This document shows positions 43,669 through 59,341 of a stretch of 64,000 nucleotides of DNA, piece by piece. Source of the stretch: an uncultured Thermoleophilia bacterium (GTDB lineage: Bacteria; Actinomycetota; Thermoleophilia; UBA2241); contig CAWCSR010000003.1 in assembly GCA_963798285.1 (NCBI GenBank), forward strand, positions 1,657,376-1,721,375, in the 5' to 3' direction. The position numbers and the translations under genes are program-made. A model generated the notes under the pieces. That model did not search any database. It was not told the origin of the DNA and was given only the letters and a program-made list of their open reading frames with translations. How positions within the stretch are numbered: the stretch's first letter is position 1; every line of letters starts with the position of its first letter.

Positions 43669-43675
43669 AGTAAGT

Positions 43676-44092
43676 ATGCAAATTCACAAGCTCGCAAAGT
43701 CGTCCTCGCCGGAGGCCCAGACAGCGGACCTCAAGCCCCTCTTCCGCATGCACGCGGAGCTGTGCAAGGCCCTGGCCAACGAGCATCGTCAAGCCATCCT
43801 TCACGCCATCTGCACCGACGAGAAGTGCGTCGGCGACCTCGCCACCGAGATCGGCATCTCGGTCCACAACGTGTCGCAGCACCTGCGCGTGCTCAAGGAG
43901 CAACGGCTCGTGGCGTCACGCAAGGACGGCCACACGGTCTACTACCACGTGACCAACATGAAGTTCATCGAGGCCTGCACGCTCATGCGGCAGGCGCTGG
44001 TCGAACAGCACGTGGCCCAGGGCGAGTCCCTGCAGGCCGCCGAGCTGCTCGACCCCCAGCGGAGCAGCCCGACGCCCGTCGCGCCGGCGTAA
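43676..44092 (+). CDS. ArsR/SmtB family regulator (cluster 1)
   Basis: LFRMHAELCKALANEHRQAILHAI...VGDLATEIGISVHNVSQHLRVLKEQRLV. Paralogue of 58928-59341. Confidence 0.88.
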   Translation: MQIHKLAKSSSPEAQTADLKPLFRMHAELCKALANEHRQAILHAICTDEKCVGDLATEIGISVHNVSQHLRVLKEQRLVASRKDGHTVYYHVTNMKFIEACTLMRQALVEQHVAQGESLQAAELLDPQRSSPTPVAPA

Positions 44093-44195
44093 GACAAGCA
44101 AGAAGGAGCCAAGGGGAACGATCACACGTGTACCAGCAGGCGGACGACCACGTCGTCGCTTGAGAATGAAAACACAAGCACAAAAGGAGCATGAC

Positions 44196-44448
44196 ATGTC
44201 CGAAGACCTCGCCAACATCCAGGTGGAAAAGATCGTCGACGCGCGCGGCACCTCGTGCCCCGGCCCCATCCTCGCGGCCAAGAAGGGCATCCCCAGCGTC
44301 TCCGTGGGCGGGGTCATGGAAGTCCAGGCGACCGACATCGGGCACGACCAAGGACCTCCCCGCATGGTCCAAGAAGATGGGCCATGAGTACCTCGGCGTG
44401 GTCGAGGAGCCGGGCTACATGCGCCTCTTCGTGAAGAAGATGAAGTGA
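44196..44448 (+). pseudogene. tusA: TusA/SirA-family sulfur carrier (cluster 1), frame disrupted near 44348
   Basis: MSEDLANIQVEKIVDARGTSCPGPILAAKK...EVQATDIGHD lies in frame 0, then KDLPAWSKKMGHEYLGVVEEPGYMRLFVKKMK in frame +1. Removing one C gives a protein colinear with the intact paralogue at 58586-58843. Confidence 0.8.
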
Positions 44449-44889
44449 CCATGACCGAGACCACGGTAACCGAGGACCAGGCGTACTCGCCGCGTATCCT
44501 GGTCTTCAGCACCAACAACATCTCCGACCCGGGCATCGACCTGGCGGGCAGCTCGCACATGCACTACTCGCCGAACGTCATGGTGATCAGCGTGCCGTGC
44601 ACGAGCGGCATCAAGCCCAGCTGGATCCTCTACGCCATGGAGCAGGGCTTCGACGGCGTCTTCATCGCCGCCGACGGCGAGGAGTGCGCGCTACCTCCCG
44701 GATTGCGGCGAGCGCACCGCCGGCATCATGACCGATGCCCAGGATCTGCTGGTCGAGAAGGGCTACGAGCCGCAGCGCGTCCGCATGGCCGCCATCTGCT
44801 CGGTCTGCGCCGAGCCCTTCACCAAATACATGCACGAGTACTCGAGGTCCCTGGCCGATCTGGGACCGTCCCGGAAGGCGACCGCATGA
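44445..44889 (+). pseudogene. MvhD/FlpD-family hydrogenase-type iron-sulfur subunit-like protein (cluster 1), frame disrupted near 44689
   Basis: RILVFSTNNISDPGIDLAGSSHMHYSPNVMVISVPCTSGIKPSWILYAMEQGFDGVFIAADGEEC, then in the +1 frame RYLPDCGERTAG...RVRMAAICSVCAEPFTKYM to TGA 44887-44889. GTGA overlap with tusA and ATGA overlap with the next gene. Confidence 0.75.
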
Positions 44890-47624
44890 ATGCTGCACCG
44901 CTCCAGTACGACGCTCTCGTGGTCGGCAGCGGCATCGGCGGGATGGAGTCAGCTCTCAAGCTCGGCGACATGGGCTACAAGGTCCTCGTCGTCGAGAAGG
45001 ACGCCAGCGTCGGCGGCAAGATGATCCTGCTCAGCAAGGTCTTCCCCACGCTCGACTGCGCCAGCTGCATCTCCACCCCCAAGATGGCTGCCACCATCCA
45101 CCATCCCAATATCGACGTCCTCACCTACTCCCAGGTCGAGGGCATCCGCGACAACGGCGACGGCACGTACCACGCCAAGATCACGCAGAAGCCGAAGTTC
45201 ATCGACGAGGCCGCCTGCACCGGCTGCCGCCAGTGCGAGATGGCCTGCAACGTGGCCGTGCCGGACGAGTTCAACGCCGACATGGTGTCGCGACGCGCGG
45301 CCTACATCGCCTTCCCTCAGGCAGTGCCGAAGAAGGCCGTGATCGACCGCGCCGGCGTCTCGCCGTGCACCTACGAGTGCCCCGCCGGCATCAAGGCGCA
45401 CGGGTACGTCGCGCGCGTGCGCAGCGGCGAGTACGAGGAGGCCTTCGACCTGGTGCTCGAGACGACCCCGCTCGTCGGCTCGCTCGGACGCGCCTGCTAC
45501 GCGCCGTGCGAGGAGCAGTGCACGCGCGGCGAGCTCGAGGGTCCGCTGCCGATCCGCCGCCTGAAGCGATTCATCGCCGACCGGCACTACGGACAGGATG
45601 AGCTGAAGCCGCTGGAGAAGCCCGAGCAGAACGGCAAGAAGGTCGCCGTCGTGGGCTCGGGCCCCGCAGGCCTCACCGCCGCCTGGCAGCTCGCTCGCAA
45701 GGGCTACGGCGTCAAGATCTTCGAGTCGGCCCCGCAGCCGGGCGGCATGCTCCGCCTCGGCATCCCGGCGTACCGGCTGCCGAACGACGTGATCGACGAC
45801 GACATCGCCAACGTGACGGCGATCGGCGTCGAGATCGAGACCGACACGCGCGTCGACGATGTCGCGGCGCTCAAGGACGACGGCTTCGACGCCGTCCTCG
45901 TGGCGACGGGCACGCACAAGGCCGTCCAGTCTGCGCGTGCCCGGCGAGGACCTCGACGGCATCCAGAGCGCCCTCACCTTCCTCGCCGACGTGAAGCTCG
46001 GGCAACCCCGTGGACCTCGCCGACAAGAAGGTCCTCGTCGTCGGCGGCGGCAACGTCGCCATCGACGCGGCGCGCTCCGCGCGCCGCCTCGGCGCCGCGT
46101 CCGTCGACCAGGTCAGCCTCGAGTGCTGCGAGGAGATGCCCGCCCACGACTTCGAGGTCGATGAAGCCAGGGCCGAGGGCATCACGCTGCACGACGGCTG
46201 GGGAATCGACCACTTCGAGGGCGACGGCGTCGTCCAGCGCGCCGAGCTCAAGGTCTGCACCTGCGTCTTCGACGCCGACGGCCGTTTCGCGCCCGAGTAC
46301 GACGAGACCCAGCGCGACACCGTCGACTGCGACGTCGTCATCGTCGCCGCCGGCATGATGGCCGACACGGAGGCGTTCGGCCTCGAGACCAACCCGAACC
46401 GGACGCTCAAGGCCGACGCCGAGACGCTCCAGACCGCCGTGCCGCACGTGTTCGCCGCCGGCGACGTCGTCACCGGCCCGACCATGATCAACAGCGCCGT
46501 CGGCCACGGCCGCCGCGCCGCCTTCATGATCGATCGCTACCTTCAGGGCGCCGTGACTGGACCCCGACGCCTTCGACGAGATGCTGGCGGTCGTCGACAA
46601 GAACGAAGTGCTCCGCGCGGCAGGACGTCTACGACCGGCGCGAGCCGCTCGAGTCCAGCGCCGCCATGAGCGCCTCGCCGACCGACTTCGTGCGAGACGG
46701 AGGCCACGATGACCGAGGACGAAGCGTTCCTCGGCGCCGCCCGCTGCCTCGACTGCGGCGTCTGCTCCGAGTGCCACGCCTGCGTGGACGTCTGCCCGGC
46801 CGACGCGATCAAGCTCGACGATGCGCGGACAGGAGATCGAGGCGGAGGTCGGCAGTGTCGTGCTCGCCACCGGCTTCAAGCTCTTCCCGGCCGACGCCAA
46901 GCCGCAGTACGGCTACGGCCGCTACAAGAACGTGATCACCGGCATGCAGATGGACCGCCTGCTGGCGCCGACCCGGCCGTACAACGCCGTGATCCGCCCC
47001 AGCGACGGCAAGGTGCCGGACAACATCGCCTACATCATGTGCACCGGGTCGCGCGACGAGACCGTCGACAACCCGCTGTGCTCCAAGATCTGCTGCATGT
47101 ACTCGGTCAAGCAGAACCAGCTCATCATGGGCGCCCTGCCGCTCGCCGACGTGACCGTCTACTACATCGACGTGCGCTCGGTCGGCAAGGGCTACGACGA
47201 GTTCTACCAGCAGGCCAAGGACATGGGCGCCAACTTCGTCAAGGGCCGCGTCTCCGGCATCACCGAGACCGACGAGGGCAACCTCGTCCTCCGCTACGAA
47301 GACATCGAGAACGGCGGCACTCTCGCCGAGACCGAGCACGACATGGTCGTGCTCGCGGTCGGCGTGCAGCCGAACCCCGAGGCCGGCCGTCTGTTCGAGG
47401 ACGGCGCCCTGGCGCTCGACGACTACTACTACGTCGGCGAGGCCGACGAAGACCTCGACCCCGGCCGCACCAATCTCCCCGGCGTGTTCGTCGCCGGTTC
47501 GGCCGCCGGGGCCAAGGACATCCCCGACTCGATCCTCCACGCGGGCGCCGCGGTCGCACAGGCCGCCGCTCACCTGGAGCGAGCGAAAGTGAGCGAAGTG
47601 GCGAAAGCAAAGGTGACGTCATGA
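44886..47624 (+). pseudogene. short HdrA/QmoA-like flavoprotein with an inserted GltD/NfnB-like NAD(P)H-oxidoreductase module (cluster 1), six frame changes
   Basis: The N-terminus is HdrA-like (VVGSGIGGMESALKLGD..., FPTLDCASCISTPKM, CTGCRQCEMAC). Next comes a GltD-like block (CPAGIKAHGYV...GRACYAPCEEQC...VAVVGSGPAGLTAAWQLARKGY...VLVVGGGNVAIDAARSA...VFAAGDVVTGPTMINSAVGHG). Then RCLDCGVCSECHACVDVCP, then the HdrA C-terminal half (VVLATGF...YIMCTGSRD...CSKICCMYS...VFVAGSAAGAKDIPDSI). Continuity needs frame changes near 45930, 46006-46009, 46556, 46619, 46693 and 46823, with no stops in the corrected path. Confidence 0.75.
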
Positions 47625-49408
47625 GTAGCCCTCGCAGCGAAGCTGCCGAGCGGGGCAACGAGGACGCACCGCCCCGCGGCCGCAAGATCGGCGTGTACGT
47701 CTGCCAGTGCGGCGGCAACATCGGCGACTACGTCGACGTGGACAAGGTCGTCGCCGAGATCAAAGGCGACGACGACGTGGTCGTCGCCAAGTCGGCGATG
47801 TTCACCTGCTCCGACGCGACCCAGCAGGAGATCGTGCAGGACGCCCAGGAGCAGGGCCTCGATGCCCTCGTGGTCGCGTCGTGCTCGCCCAAGCTGCACA
47901 CCCTGACCTTCCGCGATGTGGCAAAGCGCGCCGGCATGAACCCGTTCCAGTACACCCAGGTGAACGTCCGCGAGCAGTGCTCCTGGACGCACACCGACGA
48001 CAAGGTCGGCGCGACCGAGAAGGCCGTGCGCCTGGTGCGCGCCGGCATCAACCGGACCCGCCTCACCGAGCCGCTCGAGCCGATCGTCGTCGAGACGACG
48101 CCGAAGAGCCTCGTGGTCGGCGGCGGCATCGCCGGCCTGCGCGCAGCCCTCGGTCTGGCGGAGATCGGCCTCACCGTCTTCCTCGTGGAGAAGGAGGCCG
48201 AGCTCGGCGGCCGTGTGGCCGGCTACGGCGCCATGTTCCCGCAGGGCCGCAACGGCGCCGACCTGATCGCCACGCTCGAGGAGAAGGTGCGCGCCAACCC
48301 GGCGATCACCGTGTTCACCAACGCGGAGCTGATGAGCCAAGAGCGGCAGCTTCGGCAACAACCAGGTGACCGTCGCCATCCACGGCGACCGCTGGAGACG
48401 ATCCAGCTGGACGTCGGGTCGATCGTCGTCGCCACCGGCTTCGACGACTACGAGCCGGCGGCCGGTGAGTTCGGCTACGGCCTGGACGGTGTCGTGACGC
48501 TGCCCGAGTTCAAGAAGATGGTGGACGAGACGTCCGGCCCGCTGCAGTACCAGGGCAAGCCGGTCAAGACCGTCGCCTACGTCTACTGCGTGGGCAGCCG
48601 CCAGGATGAGGGCGTCGAAGGCGCGCACACCTACTGCTCGCGTTACTGCTGCACATCCGCGGTGCACACCGCACTCGAGGCCCAGAAGCTCGGCGGCGAT
48701 CTGCGCCAGTACCACCTCTACCGGGACATGCGGACCTACGGCAAGTACGAGTTGCTGTGGAACGAGTCGCGCCAGAATGGCTCGCTCTATCTGCGGGTAC
48801 CCGACGACGAGCCGCCGGCGGTGGAGAAGCTCTCCTCCGGCGGCCTCAAGGTCACCACCAAGGACCTGCTCACCGGCGGCGAAGAGATCGCGATCCCCGC
48901 CGACCTCGTCGTACTCGTCACCGGCATGGTGCCGCGCGAGAACTCCGAGCTGGTCAGCGTCCTCAAGCTCCCGGTGGGCAACGACGGCTTCTACAACGAG
49001 ATCCACCCCAAGCTGCGCCCCGTGGAGACGATCGTGGACGGCGTGCTCATCTGCGGCGCCTGCCAGGCGCCAAAGACGTCGTCCGAGGCCGTCGCCAGCG
49101 GCCTGGCCGCCGTCACCCAGAGCGGCGCCATGCTCAAGCGCGGCTTCGCCGAGCTCGACCCCATGGTGGCGATCGTCGACAACGATGCCTGCACCTGGTG
49201 CGGCAAGTGCCAGGAGGCCTGCCCCTACGACGCGATCGAACAGGTCGAGGCCGATGGCAAGCAGGTGGCTCAGGTCATCAGGACGGCCTGCAAGGGTTGT
49301 GGGGGCTGCGTGCCGGTCTGCCCGACCGACGCCATCGACCTGCAGGGCTACACCGACGCTCAGATCAGATCCATGATCGACGGCCTGATGGAGGTGAGCT
49401 GCTCATGA
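47621..49408 (+). CDS. hdrA: full-length HdrA-type heterodisulfide reductase subunit A-like flavo-FeS protein (cluster 1)
   Basis: 595-aa open frame. N-terminal cluster domain KIGVYVCQCGGNIGDYVD...CSPKLHTLTFR...VNVREQCSWTH. FAD motif LVVGGGIAGLRAALGLAE. Also CVGSRQ...YCSRYCC, and a C-terminal 2x[4Fe-4S] (CTWCGKCQEACP, CKGCGGCVPVCP). Residues encoded at about 48343-48393 look locally out of frame. Confidence 0.85.
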   Translation: MSSPRSEAAERGNEDAPPRGRKIGVYVCQCGGNIGDYVDVDKVVAEIKGDDDVVVAKSAMFTCSDATQQEIVQDAQEQGLDALVVASCSPKLHTLTFRDVAKRAGMNPFQYTQVNVREQCSWTHTDDKVGATEKAVRLVRAGINRTRLTEPLEPIVVETTPKSLVVGGGIAGLRAALGLAEIGLTVFLVEKEAELGGRVAGYGAMFPQGRNGADLIATLEEKVRANPAITVFTNAELMSQERQLRQQPGDRRHPRRPLETIQLDVGSIVVATGFDDYEPAAGEFGYGLDGVVTLPEFKKMVDETSGPLQYQGKPVKTVAYVYCVGSRQDEGVEGAHTYCSRYCCTSAVHTALEAQKLGGDLRQYHLYRDMRTYGKYELLWNESRQNGSLYLRVPDDEPPAVEKLSSGGLKVTTKDLLTGGEEIAIPADLVVLVTGMVPRENSELVSVLKLPVGNDGFYNEIHPKLRPVETIVDGVLICGACQAPKTSSEAVASGLAAVTQSGAMLKRGFAELDPMVAIVDNDACTWCGKCQEACPYDAIEQVEADGKQVAQVIRTACKGCGGCVPVCPTDAIDLQGYTDAQIRSMIDGLMEVSCS

Positions 49409-49698
49409 CGCCCGACGACACCGCCACGACCCGTCCGCTGATCAAGGACGCGGTCCCCGGTCAGCGCGACGTCCGCGAGGTGATCCGCGACGAGCAGGTC
49501 ATGCGTCGCCGCGTGCTGGCCGTGCTCGCAGACGGGCCTCTCACGGTGCCCGAGATCGCGGCCGCCCTCGAACGGCCCACCCACGAAGTGATGTTCTGGG
49601 TCATGGGCCTGCGCAAGTACGGCTGGCTGGCCGAGGACAAGGAAGTCAACGACGATGGCTACTTCCGCTATGAAGCGGTGGAGAGGGAGGGCTCATGA
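49405..49698 (+). CDS. small winged-helix (MarR/ArsR-like) protein embedded in Hdr cluster 1
   Basis: 97 aa with ATGA overlaps on both sides. RRRVLAVLADGPLTVPEIAAALERPTHEVMFWVMGLRKYGWLAE..DGYFRY. Paralogue at 54443-54757. Confidence 0.7.
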   Translation: MTPDDTATTRPLIKDAVPGQRDVREVIRDEQVMRRRVLAVLADGPLTVPEIAAALERPTHEVMFWVMGLRKYGWLAEDKEVNDDGYFRYEAVEREGS

Positions 49699-50009
49699 CG
49701 GCTCTCGTGAACCCCGGGCTGGCGACAGAGCTGGCGCGCTCAGGCGAGTTCAACGCCGACGCCTGCATGAACTGCGGGGTGTGCTCCGCCATCTGCCCCA
49801 TGGGCGTCGACGTCGAGGTGCGCAAGCTGTTCCGCTACGTGCTCCTCGGCATGGAAGACCAGGTCAAGGCCGAGACGGAGAACGTCTTCTCGTGCCTGCT
49901 CTGCAAGATGTGTGAGGAGAACTGCCCCGCGGGCGTGCACATCGCCGAGAACGTGCGCACGCTGCGGCACCACATCGTCCGCACCACCTTCGGCCTCGGG
50001 GAGGGATGA
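49695..50009 (+). CDS. hdrC: HdrC-like 2x[4Fe-4S] ferredoxin subunit
   Basis: CMNCGVCSAICPMG and CLLCKMCEENCPAG. 104 aa. Translationally coupled to its neighbours. Confidence 0.8.
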   Translation: MTALVNPGLATELARSGEFNADACMNCGVCSAICPMGVDVEVRKLFRYVLLGMEDQVKAETENVFSCLLCKMCEENCPAGVHIAENVRTLRHHIVRTTFGLGEG

Positions 50010-50983
50010 CCATGCCTCTCCCGACCGGCGACGTGATCGGCATCCTGGGCGACAACCTGCGCCTGCGGAAGTCGGTCCTCCCGCTGCCGAGCAAGGTGGC
50101 GACCAAGTGGACCGAGGGTCTCGGCCTGCCGCGAGGCGGCGAGACCGTGCTCTACACCGGGATGATGTACCAGCTCATCCCGTACATCGAAGGCCTCGTG
50201 AAGGCCGAGATCAAGTTCGGCGACTCCTGGCTCGGCAAGTACACCGGCCTGGGCCGCCGTGTGAACCGCATGATCAACATCTCCGCGTTCATGGCGCGGC
50301 CCTCGGCAGAGGAGCGCGCCGTCTACGACCAGGTGCCGATCAACGTCGTCCACCTGCTGCGCAAGGCCGGCGTCCAGTTCGGCGCCCTCTATCAGGACGA
50401 CCTCTATTCGGGCGCCCTCGCCTACGACCTGGGCCTCGACGAGGTCGTGGTCGAGCACGCGAAGAAGGTCTTCGCGGCGCTCAAGAAGCACGGGGTCAAG
50501 ACCGTGATCACCATCGACCCGCATACCACCACCATGCTGCGCAGCGTCTACCCCAGGATCCTGAGCGGCTACGACATCGAGGTGAAGAGCTACCTCGAGG
50601 TGCTCGCCGAGAAGGGCTTCGGCTCCAACGGTCACAGCGCCAAGGCGCTCTCGGGCGAAGTCGTCGTGCACGACTCCTGCGTCTTCGCCCGCTACGAGGG
50701 CGTCGTCGACGAGCCGCGCGAGCTGCTCGCCGCCACCGGACTCACCATCCGCGACCCCGAGAACTCGGGCCGTCAGACGTGGTGCTGCGGCGGCCCCGTC
50801 GAGTCGCTGTACCCGGCCAAGGCGATCGCCAACGCGGAGAAGCGCGTCGCGCAGCTCCGCGAGGCCGCTCCCGACGCCGTCACCATGTGCCCGATGTGCT
50901 TCGTGAACCTGAGCAATGCAGCCGGCGACACGATGCGCTTCAAGGATATCTCGCAGTACCTGCGCGAGGCCTACGCGTCCTGA
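50006..50983 (+). CDS. hdrB: HdrB-like CCG-domain protein (only the C-terminal CCG domain retains its cysteines)
   Basis: C-terminal DSC...WCCGGP...MCPMC is a complete CCG motif. The N-terminal half aligns to a CCG domain in spacing (VLYTGMMYQL, YSGALAYDLG, VITIDPHTTTML) but contains no Cys. Confidence 0.75.
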   Translation: MTMPLPTGDVIGILGDNLRLRKSVLPLPSKVATKWTEGLGLPRGGETVLYTGMMYQLIPYIEGLVKAEIKFGDSWLGKYTGLGRRVNRMINISAFMARPSAEERAVYDQVPINVVHLLRKAGVQFGALYQDDLYSGALAYDLGLDEVVVEHAKKVFAALKKHGVKTVITIDPHTTTMLRSVYPRILSGYDIEVKSYLEVLAEKGFGSNGHSAKALSGEVVVHDSCVFARYEGVVDEPRELLAATGLTIRDPENSGRQTWCCGGPVESLYPAKAIANAEKRVAQLREAAPDAVTMCPMCFVNLSNAAGDTMRFKDISQYLREAYAS

Positions 50984-51029: not shown

Positions 51030-51516
51030 GTGGACACGACCACCAAGAAGACGATCATCCTGTTCAGTGGCGACTTCGACAAGGTGATGGCGGCGTTCAT
51101 CATCGCCAACGGCGCCGCCGCCATGGGCGACGACGTCACCATCTTCGCCACGTTCTGGGGTCTCAACATCTTCCGCAAGGCGAGAGAAGGTCACGACGGA
51201 CGGCAAGAAGAGCTTCCTGCAGAAGGCCTTCGGCAGCATGATGCCCAGGGGCTCGAAGAAGCTCGGGCTCTCCAAGATGAACTTCGCCGGCGCCGGCGCT
51301 CCTCTCATGCGCAAGGTCATGAAGAACGCGAACGCCATGTCGCTCGAGGAACTGATCGACAGCGCCCGCGAGATGGACGTGAAGTTCGTCGCCTGCACGC
51401 TGTCGATGGACATCCTCGGATTCAAGGAAGAGGAGATGATCGACGGCCTCGAGTACGCCGGCGTCGCCGCCTATCTGGGCGAGGCCGACGAGGCCAACGT
51501 CAACCTGTTTATCTAG
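51030..51516 (+). pseudogene. DsrE/DsrF/DrsH-like (DrsE_2) family protein, frame disrupted near 51183
   Basis: GTG start after GGAGG. VDTTTKKTIILFSGDFDKVMAAFIIANGAAAMGDDVTIFATFWGLNIFRKA, then in the +1 frame EKVTTDGKKSFLQKAFGSMMPRGSKKLGLSKMNFAGAG...KFVACTLSMDILGFKEEE...ANVNLFI. Confidence 0.8.
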
Positions 51517-51844: not shown

Positions 51845-52252
51845 GTGGGACGACTGACCGAGGACGCAAAGCGAGTGCTCGCCCAGATGAAGGTCGTGCC
51901 GGTGGCGACCGCATCGAAGGCCGGCCTGCCCAACGTGGTGCCGATGACCTTCGTGAAGACGCTCGACGACTCGGCGGTGCTCATCGCCGATAACTTCATG
52001 GACAAGGGCGCGAAGAACCTCGAGGAGAACCCTCACGTCGCCATCTGTGCGTGGGACCTCGAGACCAAACGCGCGTATCAGGTGAAGGGCACCGCGGAAG
52101 TCCATCGCGTGGGATCCGTCTTCGACGAGACCGTCGCCTGGGTCCAGGAGAGCAGACCGGAGATCGCCACCAGAGCTGCGGTGGTCGTGAGCATCACGAA
52201 CGTCTTCGTGTGCTCGGCCGACGACCGGGGCAAGGACGTGGTCCTGCCGTAG
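51845..52252 (+). CDS. pyridoxamine 5'-phosphate oxidase family (FMN-binding split-barrel) protein
   Basis: GTG start 4 nt after AAGGAGG. VGRLTEDAKRVLAQMKVVPVATASKAGLPNVVPMTFVKTLDDSAVLIADNFMDKGAKNLEENPHVAI. Confidence 0.75.
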   Translation: MGRLTEDAKRVLAQMKVVPVATASKAGLPNVVPMTFVKTLDDSAVLIADNFMDKGAKNLEENPHVAICAWDLETKRAYQVKGTAEVHRVGSVFDETVAWVQESRPEIATRAAVVVSITNVFVCSADDRGKDVVLP

Positions 52253-52306
52253 GCGGGTGCGGACGGGCCCGGGCCTTCGGTCTCTCCTGCAGCGCCGCAA
52301 GACACA

Positions 52307-52347: not shown

Positions 52348-52376
52348 CTGCACGAGGCATACCGATCGCCGTCGGT

Positions 52377-52751
52377 TCAGTAGTTGAGCACCGCCGACGC
52401 GGTCGTGACTTCCTGGATGACGCGTGCTCCGGCGATCAGCTGCGCGCCGTCGACCAGCAGGTCCTGCCCGAGCTCCCGCTCCTGGACGCACGGTGTGCAG
52501 ACGAGCAGCTTGCCGCCGGCCTCCATGAAGGTCGCGAAGAGATCTTTGAGCGGCGGCAGACCGCCGGCGAAGATGTGGTCGTAAACGCCCTTCTGGGCCA
52601 GCAGGACGCCCGTCCCTTGAAGGATGACGACGGCCTCGCATTCCATCACCTGAGCGGCGGTCGCCATGACGAACGGCAGCGTCGCACGCTCTTTGTCCTC
52701 GGGGCCGTGCGTCGCCATGATGACGACCTTGTCTGCGGCTGCGTCTGCCAT
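52377..52751 (-). CDS. DsrE/DsrF-like family protein (cluster 2, last gene)
   Basis: 124 aa. KVVIMATHGPEDKERATLPFVMATAAQVMECEAVVILQGTGV...KLLVCTPCVQERE is the DsrE-fold pattern with a conserved Cys. Confidence 0.8.
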   Translation of the reverse strand: MADAAADKVVIMATHGPEDKERATLPFVMATAAQVMECEAVVILQGTGVLLAQKGVYDHIFAGGLPPLKDLFATFMEAGGKLLVCTPCVQERELGQDLLVDGAQLIAGARVIQEVTTASAVLNY

Positions 52752-52835
52752 GCGTGTCTCCTTCGTGAATGTCCGGCTAAGTCGCTGGCCTGGCGCAGGC
52801 CGGAGCGAGCGGGGCCTGCAACCGTCGCGGTCGGG

Positions 52836-53249
52836 TCAGAGCACCTGAACGACGTCTGCCTTTTCGCAGCTCGTGATGTACTTGGCGATGCCGACGATGT
52901 CATCGACGACGTCGACGAAGTCGTCGAGCTCGCCGGCGCCCCAGATCTTGCCCGCGGCCTGGCAGCAGTGGATCTTGACGTTGCCCATGGCCTTGAGCTT
53001 GCGGAAGTTCTCAAGGGGGTCGGGAACGGCGTTCTCGGCCATCCCGGCCAGCATCTCTTCCTTCAGTTCGGGGCGGTCGGCATACGTGCCTGCGGCGCCG
53101 CCCACGTCCTTGCGGAACGCGTAAGCGCCTCCGAGCAGCAGGTAGATGTCCACGTCCATCTCGAGAGCCACGGCGCCGCCGGTCAGGGTGCTGGCGACGA
53201 CGAGCTTCTCGAGGCTGCCACTGGCAAGACTGATGATCATGGAACTCAT
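52836..53249 (-). CDS. DsrE-family-like / peroxiredoxin-like small protein (cluster 2)
   Basis: 137 aa from MSSMIISLASGSLEKLVVASTLTGGAVALEMDVDIYLLLGGAYAF...VKIHCCQAAGKIWG. It is the tail of the 535-aa track ORF, the rest of which is junk antisense to the membrane gene. Confidence 0.65.
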   Translation of the reverse strand: MSSMIISLASGSLEKLVVASTLTGGAVALEMDVDIYLLLGGAYAFRKDVGGAAGTYADRPELKEEMLAGMAENAVPDPLENFRKLKAMGNVKIHCCQAAGKIWGAGELDDFVDVVDDIVGIAKYITSCEKADVVQVL

Positions 53250-53269
53250 TGGTGCTTCCCTTCTCTGGA

Positions 53270-54443
53270 CTACTGGCGGGTGACGCGCAGCCGACGGAAC
53301 TCGGTGAACCAGATCGCGAGCGGTCGGTACACGATGTGGGCGAGCTTGGTGAACGGCAGGAGCAGGATCAGTTCCATCGCCAGAGCGATGTGGATCAGGA
53401 AGACGACGCCGACCCAGCCGCTGAGCGTCGCGTAGTCGGCGAGCTCGAGCACGAACCCGGTGACGCCGATCCCCCACAGAAGGGCGAGGAAGAGCCAGTC
53501 GGAGAGCAGGCTGTGCGAGCTGTACTTGTCCTGTTTGCGCAGGCGCTGGACGACCGCGACGGTGACGCCGTAGACGAGGAAAACGCCGGCGACCGTGCCG
53601 AGCAGGCGCGCCGGCGACCAGATCGGCACGTAGGAGCCCGGCACCTTGAAGAGGTAGTCGAGCGCCGTCGCGAGCGCCAGCCCGATCATGCCCATCATGA
53701 TCGCGTAGTGCACGAACCAGCGACGCAGCGGCAGCGGCGCCGGCGGCGCGGGCTTCTCGCTGTCGCAGTCCCGGTAGCGCATCTGGCCGAAGACCTCCGC
53801 GATGGTCGTCCCGAGGGAGCGAAGCGCGGCCGAGAGCGGGAAGGCTTCCGCCCGCGCCTCCGGCAGCCCGAGGCCGCCCGGCGTCGGAGCGCGCGAGATC
53901 GACCAGAGCATGTTCACCACGGTGGCGACGGTGAACGCCACGGCGACGACGCCCACGGCGACGCCCAGCCAGTGGATGGTCTCGTAGGGGATGAACGTGA
54001 GGAGCGCGTCGCTCGTGACGCGGCCCGTCGGCCAGCCGGGCGAGCCGGCCAGCAGGATCGCGAGCAGAGCCGCGAATACGACGGCCAGGAGCGACCAGGT
54101 GAAGGCCGCCGACCCGTAGAGACGGCGGGCGATCGTGGTCGGATCGAAGCCGGCGATGGCGAAGCGCCTCGCCGAGGCCATGAACTCGCCCGGCTCGGCC
54201 TGACGAGGGCACGTGTCCGAGCACTCGCCGCAGTAGTAGCAGAGCCAAAGCTCGCGGCTGGCGACGACGTTGGCCTTCTGCCCGAGCTGCGCGTAGCGGA
54301 TCATGCGCCGTGGGAACGCCACGGAGTCCTTCGAGAGCGGGCACACTGCGGTGCAGTTGCCACAGTTGAAGCACGCGTTGATGTCGAACGCGCCGTAGCG
54401 TCTTCATGTCGCGAAGCACGGTGGTGTCGATGCGCGTGGCCAT
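53270..54443 (-). pseudogene. QmoC-like fusion: HdrC-type 2x[4Fe-4S] domain + NarI/HdrE-type six-helix membrane domain (cluster 2), frame disrupted near 54401
   Basis: MATRIDTTVLRDMK, then after a frame change RYGAFDINACFNCGNCTAVCP...CYYCGECSDTCP, then six hydrophobic helices with conserved His (IHWLGV, VHYAIMMG, LIHIALAM, LAHIVYRP). Confidence 0.75.
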
Positions 54444-54757
54444 CAGGACTCACCCCCGCCGGCGCCGGCGACCAGGCTGTAGGTGCAGTAGTCGCCGTCC
54501 ATCCCGGACTCCACGAGGTCGCCATACTTGCGCATCGCAGCTACGTGCCACAGCACATCCCGGGTGGCCAGGCCGGTGGCCGCGGCCAGCGAAGGGACCG
54601 TCGCCGGTCCCTCGGCCAGCGCGGTGCGCACCTGCTTGCGCGCCGCCTGCCGTAGCTTGTTGCGCTCGACCGCCGCGTCCACGGCCGTGCCACGTTCGGC
54701 ACGCAGCTTCTTGAGCGTCGCCTTGAGGGCGGTGCGCTGTTCCTTCGAAGTGCTCAT
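54443..54757 (-). CDS. small winged-helix protein embedded in Hdr cluster 2
   Basis: 104 aa. ALAEGPATVPSLAAATGLATRDVLWHVAAMRKYGDLVES..DGDYCTY. Colinear with 49405-49698. Overlapping start and stop with both neighbours. Confidence 0.7.
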   Translation of the reverse strand: MSTSKEQRTALKATLKKLRAERGTAVDAAVERNKLRQAARKQVRTALAEGPATVPSLAAATGLATRDVLWHVAAMRKYGDLVESGMDGDYCTYSLVAGAGGGES

Positions 54758-56790
54758 CGCGCCGGCGCCTCCGATCCGGCGACGATCGCGTCGACCATCG
54801 CCTCGTACTGATCAAGGGTCCAGCCGGCCAGATCGATCGCCCTCGTCGGGCACACCGCGACACACGCGCCGCAGCCGGAGCACAGCGCAGGATTCACGAC
54901 CGCCCGCCGGGCGCCGTCGGGGTAGTCGTGCAGCTCGACGGCGCCGGGGTACGGGCACTCGGCGACGCACGCGCCGGCGCCTTCGCAGAGCGTGGCGTCC
55001 ACGTGCGCCACGAAGGGGTCGAGTTCGACGTGGCCGGTCGAGAGCAGCGCCGTGGCCTTGGCGGCCGCGGCGGACGCCGATGCGACCGACTCCGTGATGT
55101 CCTTGGGGCCCTGGCTGGTACCGGCGACGAGCACACCGTTGACGGCGAGTTCCACCGGCCGCAGCTTGGGGTGGACCTCCTGCAAGAAGCGGTCGGCGCC
55201 GACCGGAAGCTTCAGACTCTCGATGAGCGCGGAGACGTCGGCCGGCTGCATGCCCACGGCCAGCACGACGAGGTCGACGGCGGCCTCGACTTCTTCTCCC
55301 CAGGTGAGGCCGTCTCGCGCCCGGACCAGCGCCGCCACGCCGTCGTCCGGCTGTGCCTTGACGACCGTCGGCGGCTCCTGGTCGTTCCAGCGCACGAAGA
55401 CCGTGCCGCCCCTGGAGGCGCGCTCGTAGTACTCCTCGTGCCCGCGGCCGTAGGCGCGGATGTCCTGATAGAAGTCGTACGTCGCCACGTCCGGGCGTTT
55501 CTCCTGCAGCTCGCAGATGGCCTGGAGGGTGGCGGTGCAGCAGACGCGCGAGCAGTACTCGTTGATGCTCCCGTCCGCCTGCGGCTTGTTGATGCCCTCG
55601 GCCTGCCGGCTGCCGACGCAGTGGATGAAGGCGACGCCGGCGACAGGGCTGCCGCCGTACTCGGGCAGCCCCTTCCCCGGATCGACGGCGCTGAGCCAGC
55701 GGATGAAGTCGGGCAGCGTCACCACCTGAGGAATGCGCTCGTAGCCGTACTCGCCCTTGCGCGGAGCGTAGTGGTCGAAGCCCGTCGCCGCGATCACGGC
55801 GCCGGCCTCGATGACGACGGTCGTGGCCGGGGCGTCTTCCGCTTCGGCGGCGGCGGCGGCGCGGTCGACGGCAGATGCATCGCCGTCGGGCGCGGTCGCT
55901 GCCGGCCGCGCGGCGGCAAGCACGTAGCCTTCGAACGGTTCGAACCGCCCGCCCGCGATGCCGCTCGCCCTGGCTGCCTCGTCGATGACGACGCCGGTCA
56001 GCGACTGGCGCACGCTCGCGGTGAAGTTGCCCACGTAGCCGCCGACGCTCTCGACGGTTGCCTCGGTGTAGATGGTCACCCGCTCCTGAGCCAGGACGTC
56101 GTCCACCAGCCGCGTGACGACCTCGGCGACGGACTCCTCGCTGGGAAAGAGACGGTCGAGCAGAGAGGCGTTGCCGCCAAGCGTCGCGGCGCGCTCGATG
56201 AGCGCGACCTCGATGCCGGCGCGCGCGAGGTCGCTCGCGGCGCGCAGACCGGCGACGCCGGCGCCCACCACGACCGCCCGGGACGTCGTGTCCACGCGGA
56301 TCGGCTCCAGAGGCCGCAACTGCGACGCCTTGGCGACGGCGGCGGCCACCAGCGAAGTCGCCTTTTCGGTCGCGGTCGCGGGGTCGTCACTAGCCCAGCT
56401 CACCTGCTCGCGGATGTTGGCCTGCTCGAGCAGGTACGGGTTCAGGCCGCCACGCTCAAGTACCTTCCTGAAGGTCGTCTCGTGCAGCTTCGGCGAGCAG
56501 GCCGCGACGACCACGCTGTCGAGCCGCTCGCCGGTGATGTCCTCGAGGACGGCGTTCTGCCCGGGGTCCGAACACATGAACACGTTGGTCTTGGCCACCA
56601 CGACGCCGGGCAACTTGCCTGCGGCGGCGATGACCTTCTCGACGTCGACGACGTCCGAGATGTTGCCGCCGCAGTGACAGACGTACACGCCGATGCGCGG
56701 CGGTACTTCCTCCACGCAAGCCGCCGCTGTCTGGGGCACTTCATCCACCGGCACGTCCGGCGAGCGCTGTTCCTGATCTCCGGCGCTCAC
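54754..56790 (-). CDS. hdrA: full-length HdrA-type flavo-FeS protein (cluster 2)
   Basis: GTG start 56790 overlaps the upstream stop (GTGA). RIGVYVCHCGGNISDVVD...CSPKLHETTFR...ANIREQVSWAS, VVVGAGVAGLRAASDLA, CVGSRQ...YCSRVCC, and C-terminal CEGAGACVAECP and CSGCGACVAVCP. Confidence 0.85.
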   Translation of the reverse strand: MSAGDQEQRSPDVPVDEVPQTAAACVEEVPPRIGVYVCHCGGNISDVVDVEKVIAAAGKLPGVVVAKTNVFMCSDPGQNAVLEDITGERLDSVVVAACSPKLHETTFRKVLERGGLNPYLLEQANIREQVSWASDDPATATEKATSLVAAAVAKASQLRPLEPIRVDTTSRAVVVGAGVAGLRAASDLARAGIEVALIERAATLGGNASLLDRLFPSEESVAEVVTRLVDDVLAQERVTIYTEATVESVGGYVGNFTASVRQSLTGVVIDEAARASGIAGGRFEPFEGYVLAAARPAATAPDGDASAVDRAAAAAEAEDAPATTVVIEAGAVIAATGFDHYAPRKGEYGYERIPQVVTLPDFIRWLSAVDPGKGLPEYGGSPVAGVAFIHCVGSRQAEGINKPQADGSINEYCSRVCCTATLQAICELQEKRPDVATYDFYQDIRAYGRGHEEYYERASRGGTVFVRWNDQEPPTVVKAQPDDGVAALVRARDGLTWGEEVEAAVDLVVLAVGMQPADVSALIESLKLPVGADRFLQEVHPKLRPVELAVNGVLVAGTSQGPKDITESVASASAAAAKATALLSTGHVELDPFVAHVDATLCEGAGACVAECPYPGAVELHDYPDGARRAVVNPALCSGCGACVAVCPTRAIDLAGWTLDQYEAMVDAIVAGSEAPAR

Positions 56791-58155
56791 GACATCACCT
56801 CCGCGTCGGCGAGCTTCGGGGCCTCTGCGCCCGCGCCGGCTGCGACCGGCGCTTGGCCCGCCGAACCGGTGACGCCGCGCTCGCGCAGGTAGAGCGACGC
56901 CTCGGTCGCCGCGGCGCCCGCCTCGACGATGGTGTCGACGATGTCCATCGGGCCGGTCGCGGTGCCGGCGACGAAGAGACCGTCCAGCGCCGTCCGGCAG
57001 GGCGCGTCCTTGGGCCGCGGCACCTCGGCAAACCCGTCCTCGCCGGTCTCGATCGCGACGAGCTGCGTGAGGTCCTCGGCGGGGCGCATGCCCAGCGAGA
57101 GCACGACGAGATCGTGCTTGCGCTCTTCGACCTGACCGAGCTGGTCGATGCGCTCGACGCGCACGATGACGCCCTGGTCGTCGGCCTCGGTCAGTCTCGC
57201 CACCTTGCCCTTGACGAACTCGATACCCATCGCCTTCGCCGAGCGATAGAACTCCTCGTAGCCCTTGCCGAAGGCGCGGATGTCCATGTAGTAGATGGTG
57301 ATGTCGGCGAACGGGCAGCGACCCGCTCAGCAGCATCGCCTGCTTGATCGCGTACATGCAGCAGACGCGCGAGCAGTACGGCACGCCCAGCGTCTGGTCG
57401 CGCGAGCCCGCGCACTGCACGTAGGCAAGCGACTCGGGGACCTTGCCGTCGGACGGCCGCAGCACGCGGCCGTACGGTCCGTGCGGCGCCAGCAGCCGCT
57501 CCATCTGGGTCGGCGCGAGCACGTTGGCGATCTCGGCGCCGTGATACTCCGCCTTGGCCTCGAGCGGCGTGAGCCGCCAGCCGGTCGTCGCAACGACCGC
57601 CTGGGCGACGACCTCGACGGTCTCCGCCTCCTGGTCGAGCACCACGGCGTCCGTCGGGCAGGCCGTCACGCAGCGACCGCAGAGGATGCAGTCGTCGGGG
57701 TCGATCACGGCCGTCTGGGGGATGGCGTTGGTGAACGGGATGTAGGCGGCACGGCGGGCGCCCATGCCGCCCTCGAACTCGTCGGGCACGTCGACCGGAC
57801 AGGCGTACTCGCACTGGCGGCAGCCGATGCAGTCCTCTTCGATCACGTAGCGAGGCTTGCGGCGCAGCACGGCGCGATAGGCTTCGCCGTCGCGCCGCAC
57901 CTGCTCCACCTCTGTGTACGTGATCGTGGTGATGTTGGGGTGGTGGGCGACGGCGGCCATCTTGGGCGTCGTGATGCAGCTGGAGCAGTCCAGGGTCGGG
58001 AAGACCTTGCTGAGGCCGATCATCGCTCCGCCGATACTCGGGTCGCGCTCGACGATGCCGACCGAGAATCCCTGGTCGGCCAGGTCGAGCGCGGACTGCA
58101 GGCCGGCGATGCCGGCGCCGATGACGAGCACGTCGAACGCGTCGGGGATCTTCAT
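56787..58155 (-). pseudogene. short HdrA/QmoA-like flavoprotein (cluster 2), frame disrupted near 57312
   Basis: VLVIGAGIAGLQSALDLAD, FPTLDCSSCITTPKM, CIGCRQCEYACP, CILCGRCVTACP, YVQCAGSRD...CSRVCCMYAIKQAMLLSGSLP. Then after a one-base shift FADITIYYMDIRAFGKGYEEFY...LFVAGTATGPMDIVDTI to the stop at 56787. Confidence 0.8.
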
Positions 58156-58571
58156 GCCACGACCTCCTCAGACTCACGCGCGAGGAGGGCGTTCATCTCC
58201 GCGATCTCCTTGAGGAACGGCTTCGTGCAGACCGTACAGATGGCGCTCAGCCGCAGCCGGTCGGGCGAGATCCCGCGCTCCTTGAGCCCCATCTTCACGC
58301 GGTCGAGGCGCGCAAGCAGCTTCTCGAACGCGCCCACGTACGGACACTCGTGGCCGCACGACATCACCAGGATGCCGCCCACGCCCTTCTCGAAGCAGCG
58401 ATAGTAGAACTCCTCAGGGAAGAGGACCGGGGAGGGCACGCGCAGGATGTACGTGTTCGCCGGGTAGTGGAGGTGAGCCTGGCCCGTCGCATCGGCTGCC
58501 GGATAGGCGCAGGTCGCCGTGGCCAGGATCAGGATCTTCGACCCGTCCCCCGCAGGGACGCCCTCACTCAC
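58152..58571 (-). CDS. MvhD/FlpD-family iron-sulfur subunit-like protein (cluster 2)
   Basis: 139 aa. KILILATATCAYPAADATGQAHLHYPANTYILRVPSP...GGILVMSCGHECPY...LSAICTVC. Overlaps the hdrA-like start. Confidence 0.75.
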   Translation of the reverse strand: MSEGVPAGDGSKILILATATCAYPAADATGQAHLHYPANTYILRVPSPVLFPEEFYYRCFEKGVGGILVMSCGHECPYVGAFEKLLARLDRVKMGLKERGISPDRLRLSAICTVCTKPFLKEIAEMNALLARESEEVVA

Positions 58572-58585
58572 GATCGCCCCCTGCC

Positions 58586-58843
58586 CTACTTGCCGCGGCG
58601 CACGAAGATGCGGTCGTAGCCTTCTTCTGCCTGGAGCACTCCAAGGTATTCATGGCCGACGCGCTCGGTCCAGACCGGGATGTCGTCACGAGAGCCGGGG
58701 TCGCTCGAACGGATCTCGACGATGCCGCCGACGCTCACCGACCCCATGCTCTTCTTGGCCTCGAGCAGCGGGCCCGGGCAGGCGCTTCCGCGTGCGTCCG
58801 CGACGCAGTCGGGAGTGATGTCCTCGAGTTCGTCGATGTCCAT
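58586..58843 (-). CDS. tusA: TusA/SirA-family sulfur carrier (cluster 2)
   Basis: 85 aa. ADARGSACPGPLLEAKK...EIRSSDPGSRDDIPVWTERVGHEYLG. AAGGAG RBS. Confidence 0.88.
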   Translation of the reverse strand: MDIDELEDITPDCVADARGSACPGPLLEAKKSMGSVSVGGIVEIRSSDPGSRDDIPVWTERVGHEYLGVLQAEEGYDRIFVRRGK

Positions 58844-58927
58844 GACTGCTCCTTTCAGGGGCGGCTCACACGCCGCCCGACGCTGTCGCGGGCCATTCCG
58901 CCCGCAGGGCCACTCAGTTTGTTGGGT

Positions 58928-59341
58928 CTAGCGTGCAGGCGTTCCGGCCGGAGGCCGGAGAGCGTCGAGCAGCTCGGCCGCGAGGAGCGAACGCCCCGCT
59001 GCCTGATGCTGCTCGACGAGTGCTTGTCTGATCAGCGTGCATCCCTCGATGAAGCGGGGGTTGGTGATCGAGTAGTACACGGTCTTGCCGTCCTTGCGCG
59101 GGCGCACGAGCATGCGCTCCCGGAGGATCCGCAGGTGCTGGGAGACCTTGTGGATCGGGATGCCGAGGACGACGGCCAGATCGCTGACGCAGCGCTCCCC
59201 CGAACCCAGCGCGAAGAGTATGGCCAGCCGGTGTTCGTTGGCCAGAGCCTTGCAGAGCTCTGCGTGCATCTCGAACAGGGTCCAGAGCTCGACGGGCATC
59301 GGCGTGATGGCATGCTCAGTCATTTGCATCATTATATACAT
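58928..59341 (-). CDS. ArsR/SmtB family regulator (cluster 2)
   Basis: LFEMHAELCKALANEHRLAILFAL...VSDLAVVLGIPIHKVSQHLRILRERMLV. Alternative leaderless-type start at 59323 (MTEH), 7 nt after a TATAAT box (59336-59331, minus). Confidence 0.88.
   Translation of the reverse strand: MYIMMQMTEHAITPMPVELWTLFEMHAELCKALANEHRLAILFALGSGERCVSDLAVVLGIPIHKVSQHLRILRERMLVRPRKDGKTVYYSITNPRFIEGCTLIRQALVEQHQAAGRSLLAAELLDALRPPAGTPAR

Follow-up and report, generated by a model that had tools for sequence, protein, structure and literature searches.

Flavoprotein complexes of the Hdr and Qmo types are the chief machinery known to perform flavin-based electron bifurcation in methanogens and in sulfate reducers, and the TusA and DsrE proteins are known to carry sulfane sulfur within the cytoplasm. 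In a stretch of 64,000 nucleotides from an uncultured Thermoleophilia bacterium (GenBank assembly GCA_963798285.1, contig CAWCSR010000003.1, positions 1,657,376 to 1,721,375; we call this whole stretch the window), components of both kinds are encoded together in two convergent gene arrays between positions 43676 and 59341. We will call the array on the + strand module A and the array on the - strand module B. Each of them encodes two HdrA-like flavoproteins, an MvhD protein, a winged helix-turn-helix (wHTH) protein of about 100 amino acids, HdrC/HdrB-like or QmoC-like proteins, and TusA and DsrE-family proteins, along with a regulator of the ArsR family. Here we describe the parts of this cassette, their cofactor ligands, the signature of an HdrA heterodimer, the coupling of the genes in operons, and the recurrence of the cassette in other genomes. 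Although a cassette that combines Hdr/Qmo and TusA/DsrE proteins with its own regulator recurs, in versions that appear to be quinone-linked or NAD(P)H-linked, it is uncharacterised.

Among the described systems, QmoABC and QmoAB-HdrCB (the version of Gram-positive sulfate reducers, where HdrCB takes the place of QmoC; PMC10504309) share with the cassette two HdrA-related flavoproteins, either a subunit that joins HdrC to a dihaem domain or a soluble HdrCB, and an MvhD-type module. The cassette differs from QmoABC in that MvhD is separate, a wHTH gene lies between hdrA and the qmoC-like gene or hdrC, and the score for qmoC is below the cutoff. It also lacks a nearby aprBA and has TusA, DsrE, and DrsE_2 genes as well as an ArsR of its own. 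Compared to QmoAB-HdrCB, the soluble version in module A has an NAD(P)H module within its short HdrA and an HdrB with a single CCG motif. A type II Qmo, which is nearer to HdrA, was reported from Vulcanisaeta moutnovskia, Ammonifex degensii, and further organisms, whether or not they have Dsr or Apr, and its role was called unclear (Neukirchen et al. 2023, PMC10504309). By that description, the cassette is like type II Qmo in having Qmo-like proteins that are close to methanogen HdrA without apr or dsr nearby. That paper names no TusA, DsrE, MvhD, or winged-helix partners.

A split of domains that is identical to the one that we report below is found in the tandem HdrA proteins of anaerobic methanotrophic (ANME) archaea and in Moorella, where the HdrABC-MvhD-MetFV system has a fused HdrA (PMC9012536). 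In contrast to those systems, the hosts here are bacteria, the complexes end in a QmoC-like anchor or a single-CCG HdrB, sulfur carriers are present, and there is no link to methane or one-carbon metabolism. In the sulfur-oxidising Hdr-like (sHdr) systems, an Hdr-like complex is likewise tied to TusA, DsrE3-type, and DsrE2B-type proteins (PMC4175335 and PMC11094781). The sHdr gene set (hdrC1B1A-hyp-hdrC2B2 and a lipoate-binding protein) is not found here: the genes are in another order, the locus has just one HdrB-like gene, in module A, and the window has no match to the lipoate-binding-protein family. Also, unlike sHdr, the cassette has two HdrA-type subunits, MvhD, and a quinone anchor or an NAD(P)H module. 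Finally, FlxABCD-HdrABC of Desulfovibrio acts on DsrC, and HdrL carries extra NAD(P)H/FAD domains. As in the cassette, a module that oxidises NAD(P)H and a protein like MvhD are combined with a core of the HdrABC type, and the carrier for Flx is DsrC. The cassette differs in that the NAD(P)H module is a GltD/NfnB-like insertion in the short HdrA, there are no Flx subunits, and the carriers are TusA and DsrE proteins, with no DsrC gene in the cassette.

Full-text searches of a literature library returned no paper that describes this cassette; only type II Qmo and the tandem HdrA proteins of ANME archaea bear on it, and papers on sulfur disproportionation, on Desulfurella, on Acidobacteria of peatlands, and on sulfur oxidisers among the proteobacteria had no bearing. 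Since these two published observations (type II Qmo in PMC10504309 and complementary tandem HdrA pairs in PMC9012536) overlap with the cassette, it is not categorically new.

Two paralogous modules with a divided HdrA

The ends of the locus at 43676 and 59341 are the start codons of arsR-A and arsR-B. Module A is arranged as arsR-tusA-mvhD-hdrA'-hdrA-wHTH-hdrC, followed by the genes for an HdrB-like CCG protein and a DrsE_2 protein; a gene for a PNPOx-like protein comes next. (We use hdrA' for the short type of hdrA.) Module B is arranged as arsR-tusA-mvhD-hdrA'-hdrA-wHTH, followed by the genes for a QmoC-like protein, a marginal DsrE/DrsE_2 protein, and a DsrE protein. We assigned the genes by their scores against Pfam and NCBIfam profiles, using intact copies from a nearly identical contig (L001, introduced below), and mapped the results to window coordinates. 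An earlier note on this DNA, which was made without database searches, had given the same gene content, order, orientation, and paralogy for both modules, and profile searches back every domain that it called.

Between the two modules, the proteins are 66% identical for ArsR, 49% for TusA, 30% for MvhD, 45-58% for the short HdrA, 41% for the long HdrA, 41% for the wHTH protein, and 30% for the HdrC part. Within one module, the short and long HdrA proteins are only ~28% identical, so the split into short and long HdrA predates the duplication that gave rise to the two modules. At every junction from mvhD through hdrB or the qmoC-like gene, including both sides of the wHTH gene, the adjacent genes overlap by 4 nucleotides (ATGA or GTGA). 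Each module probably forms an operon that is complete in itself and is controlled by its ArsR-family protein.

In the window, both modules contain frameshifts (13 in all), and many open reading frames (ORFs) are broken or seem to be fused. The G+C content of the window is about 69%, and tracking it at third positions (GC3) shows repeated changes of frame inside single genes, with a periodicity that continues across each shift. By exact-sequence look-up, the intact small proteins were found on an NCBI/ENA contig of 1,999,427 bp and on the contig L001 (ENA ERZ25039489 contig_91382, 373.7 kb). L001 is 99.46% identical to positions 44434-64000 of the window, with 93 mismatches and 12 single-base indels over 19.5 kb. 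The mismatches are concentrated in the two short-HdrA genes, at 44-47 kb and at 57-58 kb. For eleven of the 12 indels, the window has a single base too many, mostly a G or C, and none is in a homopolymer run. In L001, all of the genes in both arrays are intact, and the genes have equal lengths in L002, L004, and the contig that bears P0077. The thirteenth frameshift (in tusA-A, near 44340) is just beyond the end of L001, and tusA-A is contiguous, at 95% identity, in L003, which is a sister metagenome-assembled genome (MAG) that probably comes from the same long-read project. L003 has comparable gene splits at other positions. Also, genes of the window that lie outside the locus are split, namely those for TelA, Pyr_redox_2, Amidohydro_3, and methyladenine glycosylase (Adenine_glyco) proteins. 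These genes, which are split or match just part of a profile, are at 3033-4287, 13213-14015, 33970-34955, and 890-1842, which points to indel errors across the window.

Given that L001 lacks 12 of the frameshifts and that genes elsewhere in the window are split as well, we take the frameshifts to be technical, or at most strain-specific, and almost certainly assembly errors. The earlier note had allowed for genuine frameshifts and dead clusters. Thirteen frame disruptions within 16 kb, with extra bases that lie outside of homopolymer runs, are what might be expected if both modules were decaying pseudogene arrays in this genome. However, the intact genes of L001, the absence of nonsense mutations or larger deletions, the prevalence of single extra bases, the splits in other genes and in L003, and the preserved GC3 periodicity all argue against decay. 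We consider it very improbable, and after the comparison to L001 and the discovery of split genes elsewhere we rejected genuine pseudogenes as the main explanation.

The four HdrA-like flavoproteins are encoded by hdrA'-A (910 amino acids, 44886..47624, + strand, with extra bases in the window at 45931, 46003, 46557, 46617, 46693, and 46822), hdrA-A (595 amino acids, 47621..49408, + strand, with a compensating +1/-1 pair of indels at 48337 and 48391), hdrA-B (the long type, 678 amino acids, 54754..56790, - strand, intact), and hdrA'-B (the short type, 455 amino acids, 56787..58155, - strand, with an extra base at 57316). All four, including the intact hdrA-B, match the solved HdrA of methanogens with E values of 1e-100 to 1e-130. 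A GxGxxG motif and the CxGSR...CxxxCC cluster motif are kept in all four. The concern in the earlier note that these ORFs might lack FAD and Fe-S motifs did not materialise on alignment.

The two types of HdrA have lost complementary parts. The long HdrAs have the N-terminal CxCGGNI...C...C motif, and they lack Cys194, Cys197, and the inserted ferredoxin domain. Where other HdrAs have FPTxDC194xxC197, the long HdrAs have FPSEESVAEV (module B) or FPQGRNGADL (module A). In hdrA-B, a low-complexity linker takes the place of the inserted ferredoxin domain, and hdrA-A is also without that domain. Conversely, the short HdrAs have a thioredoxin-reductase domain that retains FPTLDCxxC (FPTLDCASC in hdrA'-A; Cys194 and Cys197 are kept in hdrA'-B as well) and the inserted ferredoxin domain, and they lack the N-terminal and C-terminal domains. 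The same complementary loss is seen in seven long and seven short HdrAs, from both modules and from five further cassettes, with QmoC-like proteins that are down to ~50% identical. The proteins that the earlier note called full-length HdrAs do have the N-terminal cluster domain, but not Cys197 or the inserted ferredoxin domain.

In the HdrA dimer, the N-terminal cluster is ligated by Cys197 of the partner subunit (Chadwick et al. 2022, PMC9012536). The same source takes tandem hdrA genes with such complementary loss to imply a heterodimer. Given this rule and the complementary losses here, each module should form one asymmetric and obligate HdrA'/HdrA heterodimer that has a single copy of each arm. 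In this, the modules depart from the single homodimeric HdrA of methanogens, which unites the N-terminal, thioredoxin-reductase, inserted-ferredoxin, and C-terminal ferredoxin domains with Cys197; here, two paralogues share these parts between them.

The short HdrA of module A is longer than its designation suggests. The earlier note called it a short HdrA-like protein, but it is actually 910 amino acids with an inserted NAD(P)H module. Residues ~147-654 match Fer4_20 (61.8 bits) and then Pyr_redox_2 (156 bits), which is a GltD/NfnB-like arrangement, and the NCBIfam families NF009410 (447 bits) and NF040770 (446 bits) also match. This unit splits the inserted ferredoxin domain, so that one of the domain's two cluster motifs comes before it and the other after it. 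By its position, the insertion would connect an NAD(P)H site to the arm that leads to ferredoxin in methanogen Hdr. The earlier note had proposed that one of the two complexes is coupled to NAD(P)H, and the GltD/NfnB-like module gives this direct support from the sequence.

MvhD is encoded by a separate gene in both modules, as the earlier note had it: mvhD-A (FlpD family, 145 amino acids, 44451..44889, + strand, FlpD 100.7 bits for the L001 copy) and mvhD-B (FlpD family, 139 amino acids, 58152..58571, - strand, FlpD 71.7 bits, intact). In the window, mvhD-A seems to be fused because of a frameshift (an extra base at 44691). The long HdrAs have no match to FlpD, so they lack the C-terminal MvhD-like domain of canonical QmoB. 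We considered whether the extra Cys residues of MvhD might form a thiol-active site, and we dropped this idea because they are not at the same positions in A-type and B-type proteins.

Exit modules and sulfur carriers

The modules differ in the proteins that follow the wHTH protein. In module A, hdrC-A (104 amino acids, 49695..50009, + strand, intact) has eight Cys for two [4Fe-4S] clusters and matches Fer4_17 and Fer4_8; its score for TIGR03290 is 54 bits, which is below the cutoff. The next gene (50006..50983, + strand, intact) encodes an HdrB-like protein of 323-325 amino acids with one stretch that matches CCG (42.9 bits). This supports the CCG assignment in the earlier note, but there is one CCG motif and not two. 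The motif is C-terminal (C223, CC258-259, and C293xxC296, or C-x34-CC-x33-CxxC), these are the protein's only Cys, and the N-terminal half has none. Thus, module A does not have the two CCG motifs that characterise HdrB in HdrABC of methanogens. Among the solved structures that match at E<=0.01, there was no HdrB from a methanogen. The protein is a distant relative of HdrB, and its sole match by sequence in the PDB was 9ojn, an "iron-sulfur-binding reductase". There is also a weak match to the DsrK model in NCBIfam. DsrK, which likewise has just one CCG site, acts on a protein substrate, DsrC. By analogy, DsrK would be a precedent for a single CCG site that acts on protein-bound sulfur.

In module B, the QmoC-like protein (390 amino acids, 53270..54443, - strand, with an extra base in the window at 54399) has an HdrC-like part for two [4Fe-4S] clusters and a six-helix membrane domain. 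It matches Nitrate_red_gam (28.4 bits) and, over its full length, the qmoC model NF038018 (211.2 bits, without reaching the cutoff of 300). Eight Cys, for the two [4Fe-4S] clusters, are invariant, and six helices are predicted. His157, His245, His351, and His369 are transmembrane, and they are invariant in orthologues that are 57-91% identical. By sequence, this protein has the defining feature of QmoC, an HdrC-like part with two [4Fe-4S] clusters fused to a dihaem membrane domain. The eight Cys, the predicted helices, and the four transmembrane His support the earlier proposal that the second complex is coupled to quinones. They also agree with the description of the locus as a Qmo/Hdr-like architecture with membrane and soluble versions side by side.

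Both modules encode TusA: tusA-A (83 amino acids, 44196..44448, + strand, 67.1 bits for the reconstructed protein) and tusA-B (85 amino acids, 58586..58843, - strand, 62.3 bits, intact). The DARGxxCPGP motif is kept (DARGTSCPGP in module A and DARGSACPGP in module B). Module A ends with a DrsE_2 protein that is DsrE2B-like (161 amino acids, 51030..51516, + strand, 208.9 bits, with an extra base in the window at 51181). Module B ends with a DsrE protein that is DsrE3-like (124 amino acids, 52377..52751, - strand, 65.2 bits, intact). Of the two DsrE-family proteins that the earlier note placed in module B, this one is secure, but the other (137 amino acids, 52836..53249, - strand, intact) is marginal: it scores 23.3 bits against DsrE (cutoff 22.7) and 23.2 bits against DrsE_2 (cutoff 25). 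It does align with the DrsE_2 proteins, including the column of their conserved Cys.

In the 124-residue DsrE, LVCTPC is invariant, and its closest solved relative is 3mc3 (SSO1125). The DrsE_2 proteins have one invariant Cys, and the closest solved relatives of the 161-residue DrsE_2 protein are 3pnx and 2qs7. According to Tanabe et al. (PMC11094781), 3mc3 is DsrE3A and 2qs7 is DsrE2B. These nearest relatives suggest that the cassette carries the dsrE3A-dsrE2B-tusA trio. In Metallosphaera cuprina, this trio adjoins Hdr-like genes, and DsrE3A and TusA carry thiosulfonate (PMC4175335).

Recurrence of the cassette and its proposed function

The wHTH proteins form 73 clusters at 90% identity for the B family and 493 for the A family. 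A joint wHTH profile found 374 representatives at 50% identity (207 at E<=1e-10), nearly all of which are ~100 amino acids, and 1932 relatives of the QmoC-like protein were found at E<=1e-10. Uncultured Thermoleophilia MAGs from the MFD series, which probably stem from long-read sequencing of soil metagenomes, are the closest genomes. With the wHTH protein as the marker, and one genome scanned per species, we found three Thermoleophilia MAGs, one from Acidobacteria, and one from NC10, and all five have the order of module B. The order of the membrane cassette is (ArsR)-TusA-MvhD-HdrA'-HdrA-wHTH-QmoC-like-DsrE-DrsE_2. Three unclassified metagenome contigs with more distant QmoC-like proteins (49-56% identical) have (ArsR)-TusA-FlpD-HdrA'-HdrA-small protein-QmoC-like-DsrE-(ArsR)-DrsE_2. 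Their flanks are unrelated, and in one of them (L010) no DrsE_2 gene was called. So, to the question of the earlier note, whether the gene order recurs, the five MAGs and the three distant contigs give a positive answer for module B. QmoC-like homologs of ~50% identity are also present in MAGs of Acidobacteriota and Planctomycetota (judged by the protein match alone). Only the relatives from the Thermoleophilia have the two modules next to each other. A tblastn search of a plasmid collection with the QmoC-like protein gave no match.

The genes that would place the cassette in a known sulfur pathway were not seen nearby. There was no apr, sat, or dsr gene within 10 kb of the cassette in eight annotated related neighbourhoods, which also means that aprBA is not beside the cassette in any of the eight. 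Within the 64-kb window, a profile scan of 40 further ORFs, plus the L001 gene calls for 59.4-64 kb, had no match to apr, sat, dsr, hydrogenase, or lipoate-binding-protein genes, in agreement with the earlier note. On the other hand, the link to TusA and DsrE that the note proposed is strengthened, as TusA and DsrE are present in every related locus examined, DrsE_2 is present in most of them, and the Cys motifs are conserved.

We propose that the modules are flavin/Fe-S electron-transfer complexes that act on carrier-bound sulfane sulfur, with module A linked to NAD(P)H and module B linked to quinones; we regard the case for this as evenly balanced. The constant presence of Cys-bearing sulfur carriers, together with the CCG site of module A, suggests that sulfane sulfur on these carriers is what undergoes the redox chemistry. 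Which substrate is used and which way electrons flow, as well as bifurcation and a response of ArsR to sulfur, are inferred. The short HdrA would contribute Cys197 and the inserted ferredoxin domain to the heterodimer. The MvhD [2Fe-2S] protein and the wHTH protein, which are encoded by overlapping genes, are probably subunits. In module A, electrons would exit via the di-cluster HdrC to the soluble HdrB-like protein with its single CCG site, which would hold a non-cubane cluster. In module B, electrons would pass between the HdrC-type di-cluster, the QmoC-type dihaem membrane domain, and the quinone pool. The chemistry would be a two-electron reaction of a persulfide, polysulfide, or thiosulfonate that is held by the TusA, DsrE3-like, and DsrE2B-like carriers. 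Module A is most likely an NAD(P)H-linked, and possibly bifurcating, reductase of carrier persulfides or disulfides, similar to how FlxABCD-HdrABC acts on DsrC. Module B would couple the same pool of carriers to menaquinone, and its free ferredoxin or MvhD arm would be served by ferredoxin or a different partner.

Some of our observations weigh against this proposal. Module B has no CCG or other recognised thiol/disulfide-active site, so we see no catalytic centre in it for redox chemistry on TusA or DsrE. Neither the window nor the related flanks encode a hydrogenase or formate dehydrogenase that could be the partner of MvhD. Among solved proteins, ArsR-B is closest to SqrR, a sensor of persulfides (E 2e-12), but in the column of SqrR's Cys41, ArsR-B has a Phe and ArsR-A has a His (the latter was placed via the alignment of the paralogues, not by direct alignment to SqrR). 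And the wHTH protein could be a second regulator instead of a subunit, given that Foldseek matches its predicted structure to DNA-binding wHTH folds.

The absence of a thiol-active site from module B would be explained if the cassette were a bifurcating or confurcating hub that does not involve sulfur, such as an NAD(P)H:ferredoxin:quinone oxidoreductase, with TusA and DsrE serving in the maturation of cofactors or Fe-S clusters or in regulating the complex. HdrA modules do serve many non-sulfur partners (PMC9012536), and the Fe-S assembly genes NifU and SufBD are near the cassette in close relatives. However, module A retains the CCG site, a hallmark of thiol/disulfide chemistry; TusA and DsrE with invariant Cys (and mostly DrsE_2 as well) are kept across phyla while the flanking genes vary; and the same trio of carriers accompanies the sulfur-oxidising Hdr-like systems. 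We view the sulfur-independent hub as unlikely. Alternatively, the modules might be a type II QmoABC and a QmoAB-HdrCB that, as canonical Qmo does, pass electrons between the quinone pool or a soluble donor and an APS (adenosine 5'-phosphosulfate) reductase encoded elsewhere. Their role would be in dissimilatory sulfate reduction or in oxidising sulfite, with TusA and DsrE as accessories. The subunits do resemble those of Qmo, and the match of the membrane subunit to the qmoC model covers its full length. This would also fit with the account in PMC10504309 of a type II Qmo that is nearer to HdrA and is found both in true sulfate reducers and in other organisms, and of QmoAB-HdrCB replacing QmoC in Gram-positive sulfate reducers. 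But the qmoC score of 211 is short of the curated cutoff of 300, MvhD is separate instead of fused to QmoB, and whereas canonical qmo adjoins aprBA, there is no apr, sat, or dsr in the 64-kb window or within 10 kb at the eight loci. Also, the cassette always has its own TusA, DsrE, and regulator, which suggests a self-sufficient unit. A role with a distant APS reductase therefore strikes us as quite improbable.

Our preferred proposal, that the modules perform redox reactions on carrier-bound sulfane sulfur, also has a bolder form. The cassette might be an unrecognised, self-contained module for sulfur-based energy metabolism in soil bacteria without apr or dsr genes close to it, in which the HdrA heterodimer bifurcates electrons from carrier-bound sulfide or persulfide (~-270 mV), uphill to ferredoxin or NAD(P)+ and downhill, via the QmoC-like anchor, to menaquinone. 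Just as likely is the reverse, in which electrons from quinol and ferredoxin would be combined for the respiration of sulfane sulfur. TusA and the DsrE3-like and DsrE2B-like proteins would be obligatory carriers, and the wHTH protein would be a new structural subunit. We consider this bolder form unlikely. If the cassette does process carrier-bound sulfur, then it would represent an unrecognised route for sulfur redox or for the detoxification of reactive sulfur in soil and peat microbiomes, and surveys that rely on Apr, Dsr, and Sox as marker genes would all miss it. The soluble module A would be a defined biochemical target for studying the function of the HdrA heterodimer.

Regulators, the winged-helix protein, and neighbouring genes

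The ArsR/SmtB-family regulators are arsR-A (138 amino acids, 43676..44092, + strand, HTH_5 46.7 bits, intact, with Cys at 30, 46, 51, and 101) and arsR-B (137 amino acids, 58928..59341, - strand, HTH_5 39.6 bits, intact). Three Cys are common to both, at positions other than the Cys41/Cys107 pair of SqrR, and the score against the BigR model is 45 bits (cutoff 155). We rejected persulfide sensing of the SqrR or BigR type because Cys41 is not conserved, and we leave these proteins as members of the ArsR family with three shared Cys.

An AT-rich box resembling a promoter and operator is present at the start of arsR-A (43639..43682, + strand), with TTGAC, a spacer of 18-19 nucleotides, GTATATAAG, and then TATGCAAA. 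At the start of arsR-B, there is the AT-rich box ATATGTATATAATGATGCAAA (59323..59343, - strand). In the window, the pattern matches only at these two arsR starts, and 0.02 matches are expected by chance. The same box is upstream of arsR in L005 and L008, and L006 has a related AT-rich box with an inverted repeat; the box recurs in cassettes from Acidobacteria and has a related form in NC10. The box has the look of a promoter combined with an operator, and arsR is probably transcribed without a leader. A scan for consensus promoters and terminators missed this conserved box and gave nothing decisive. That scan did report a terminator-like hairpin after module A, at 51627-51639. A third ArsR-family gene (43207-43542, - strand, HTH_5 64.5 bits) is divergent from arsR-A, and it is followed by a gene for a hexapeptide-repeat transferase (42681-43259, - strand).

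The small winged-helix proteins are encoded at 49405..49698 on the + strand (protein A, 97 amino acids, intact, with 4-nucleotide overlaps with both neighbours) and at 54443..54757 on the - strand (protein B, 104 amino acids, intact). The AlphaFold2 model of protein B, with a mean predicted local distance difference test (pLDDT) score of 90.6, has a long helix (residues 2-47, or 46 residues) and then a winged helix. When compared to the PDB with Foldseek, this model has just generic similarity to the DNA-binding folds of ArsR, MarR, and Z-alpha proteins (E>=1e-3). Such generic matches do not separate a regulator from a subunit, so we gave up on deriving the function from the fold. The fixed place of the gene between hdrA and hdrC or the qmoC-like gene, its overlapping start and stop codons, and the presence of a separate ArsR suggest that a structural or adaptor role is at least as likely as a regulatory one. 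In another protein, P0389 (901 amino acids), the profile of the small winged-helix family matches eight times over, in separate stretches, and this protein appears to be a multi-repeat form.

Between the modules is the gene for the PNPOx-like flavoprotein (135 amino acids, 51845..52252, + strand, PNPOx_N 70 bits), which is outside of the core cassette. A PNPOx-like gene is found between the modules in all of the close relatives from the Thermoleophilia, and the distant cassettes lack it. Elsewhere in the window are genes of unrelated function, such as those for TelA, MFS (major facilitator superfamily) and ABC transporters, TetR regulators, HtrA, an aldo-keto reductase, and beta-propeller proteins. 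At 37394-42632 on the + strand, there are three consecutive ORFs of ~480-510 amino acids; two of these have SBBP beta-propeller repeats and one has no match in Pfam. An ORF on the - strand at 17744-19393 combines an N-terminal ferredoxin domain for two [4Fe-4S] clusters with a PLP (pyridoxal phosphate)-dependent decarboxylase domain, and it adjoins an ORF with a weak Condensation domain (20428-21795) and a gene for an MFS transporter. In two of the related loci, functions in thiol or redox stress are encoded upstream of the cassette: an extra ArsR, a thioredoxin-like protein, a YgaP-like transmembrane protein, and OsmC in L008 (1-5000), and a hybrid-cluster protein in L009 (1-5400).

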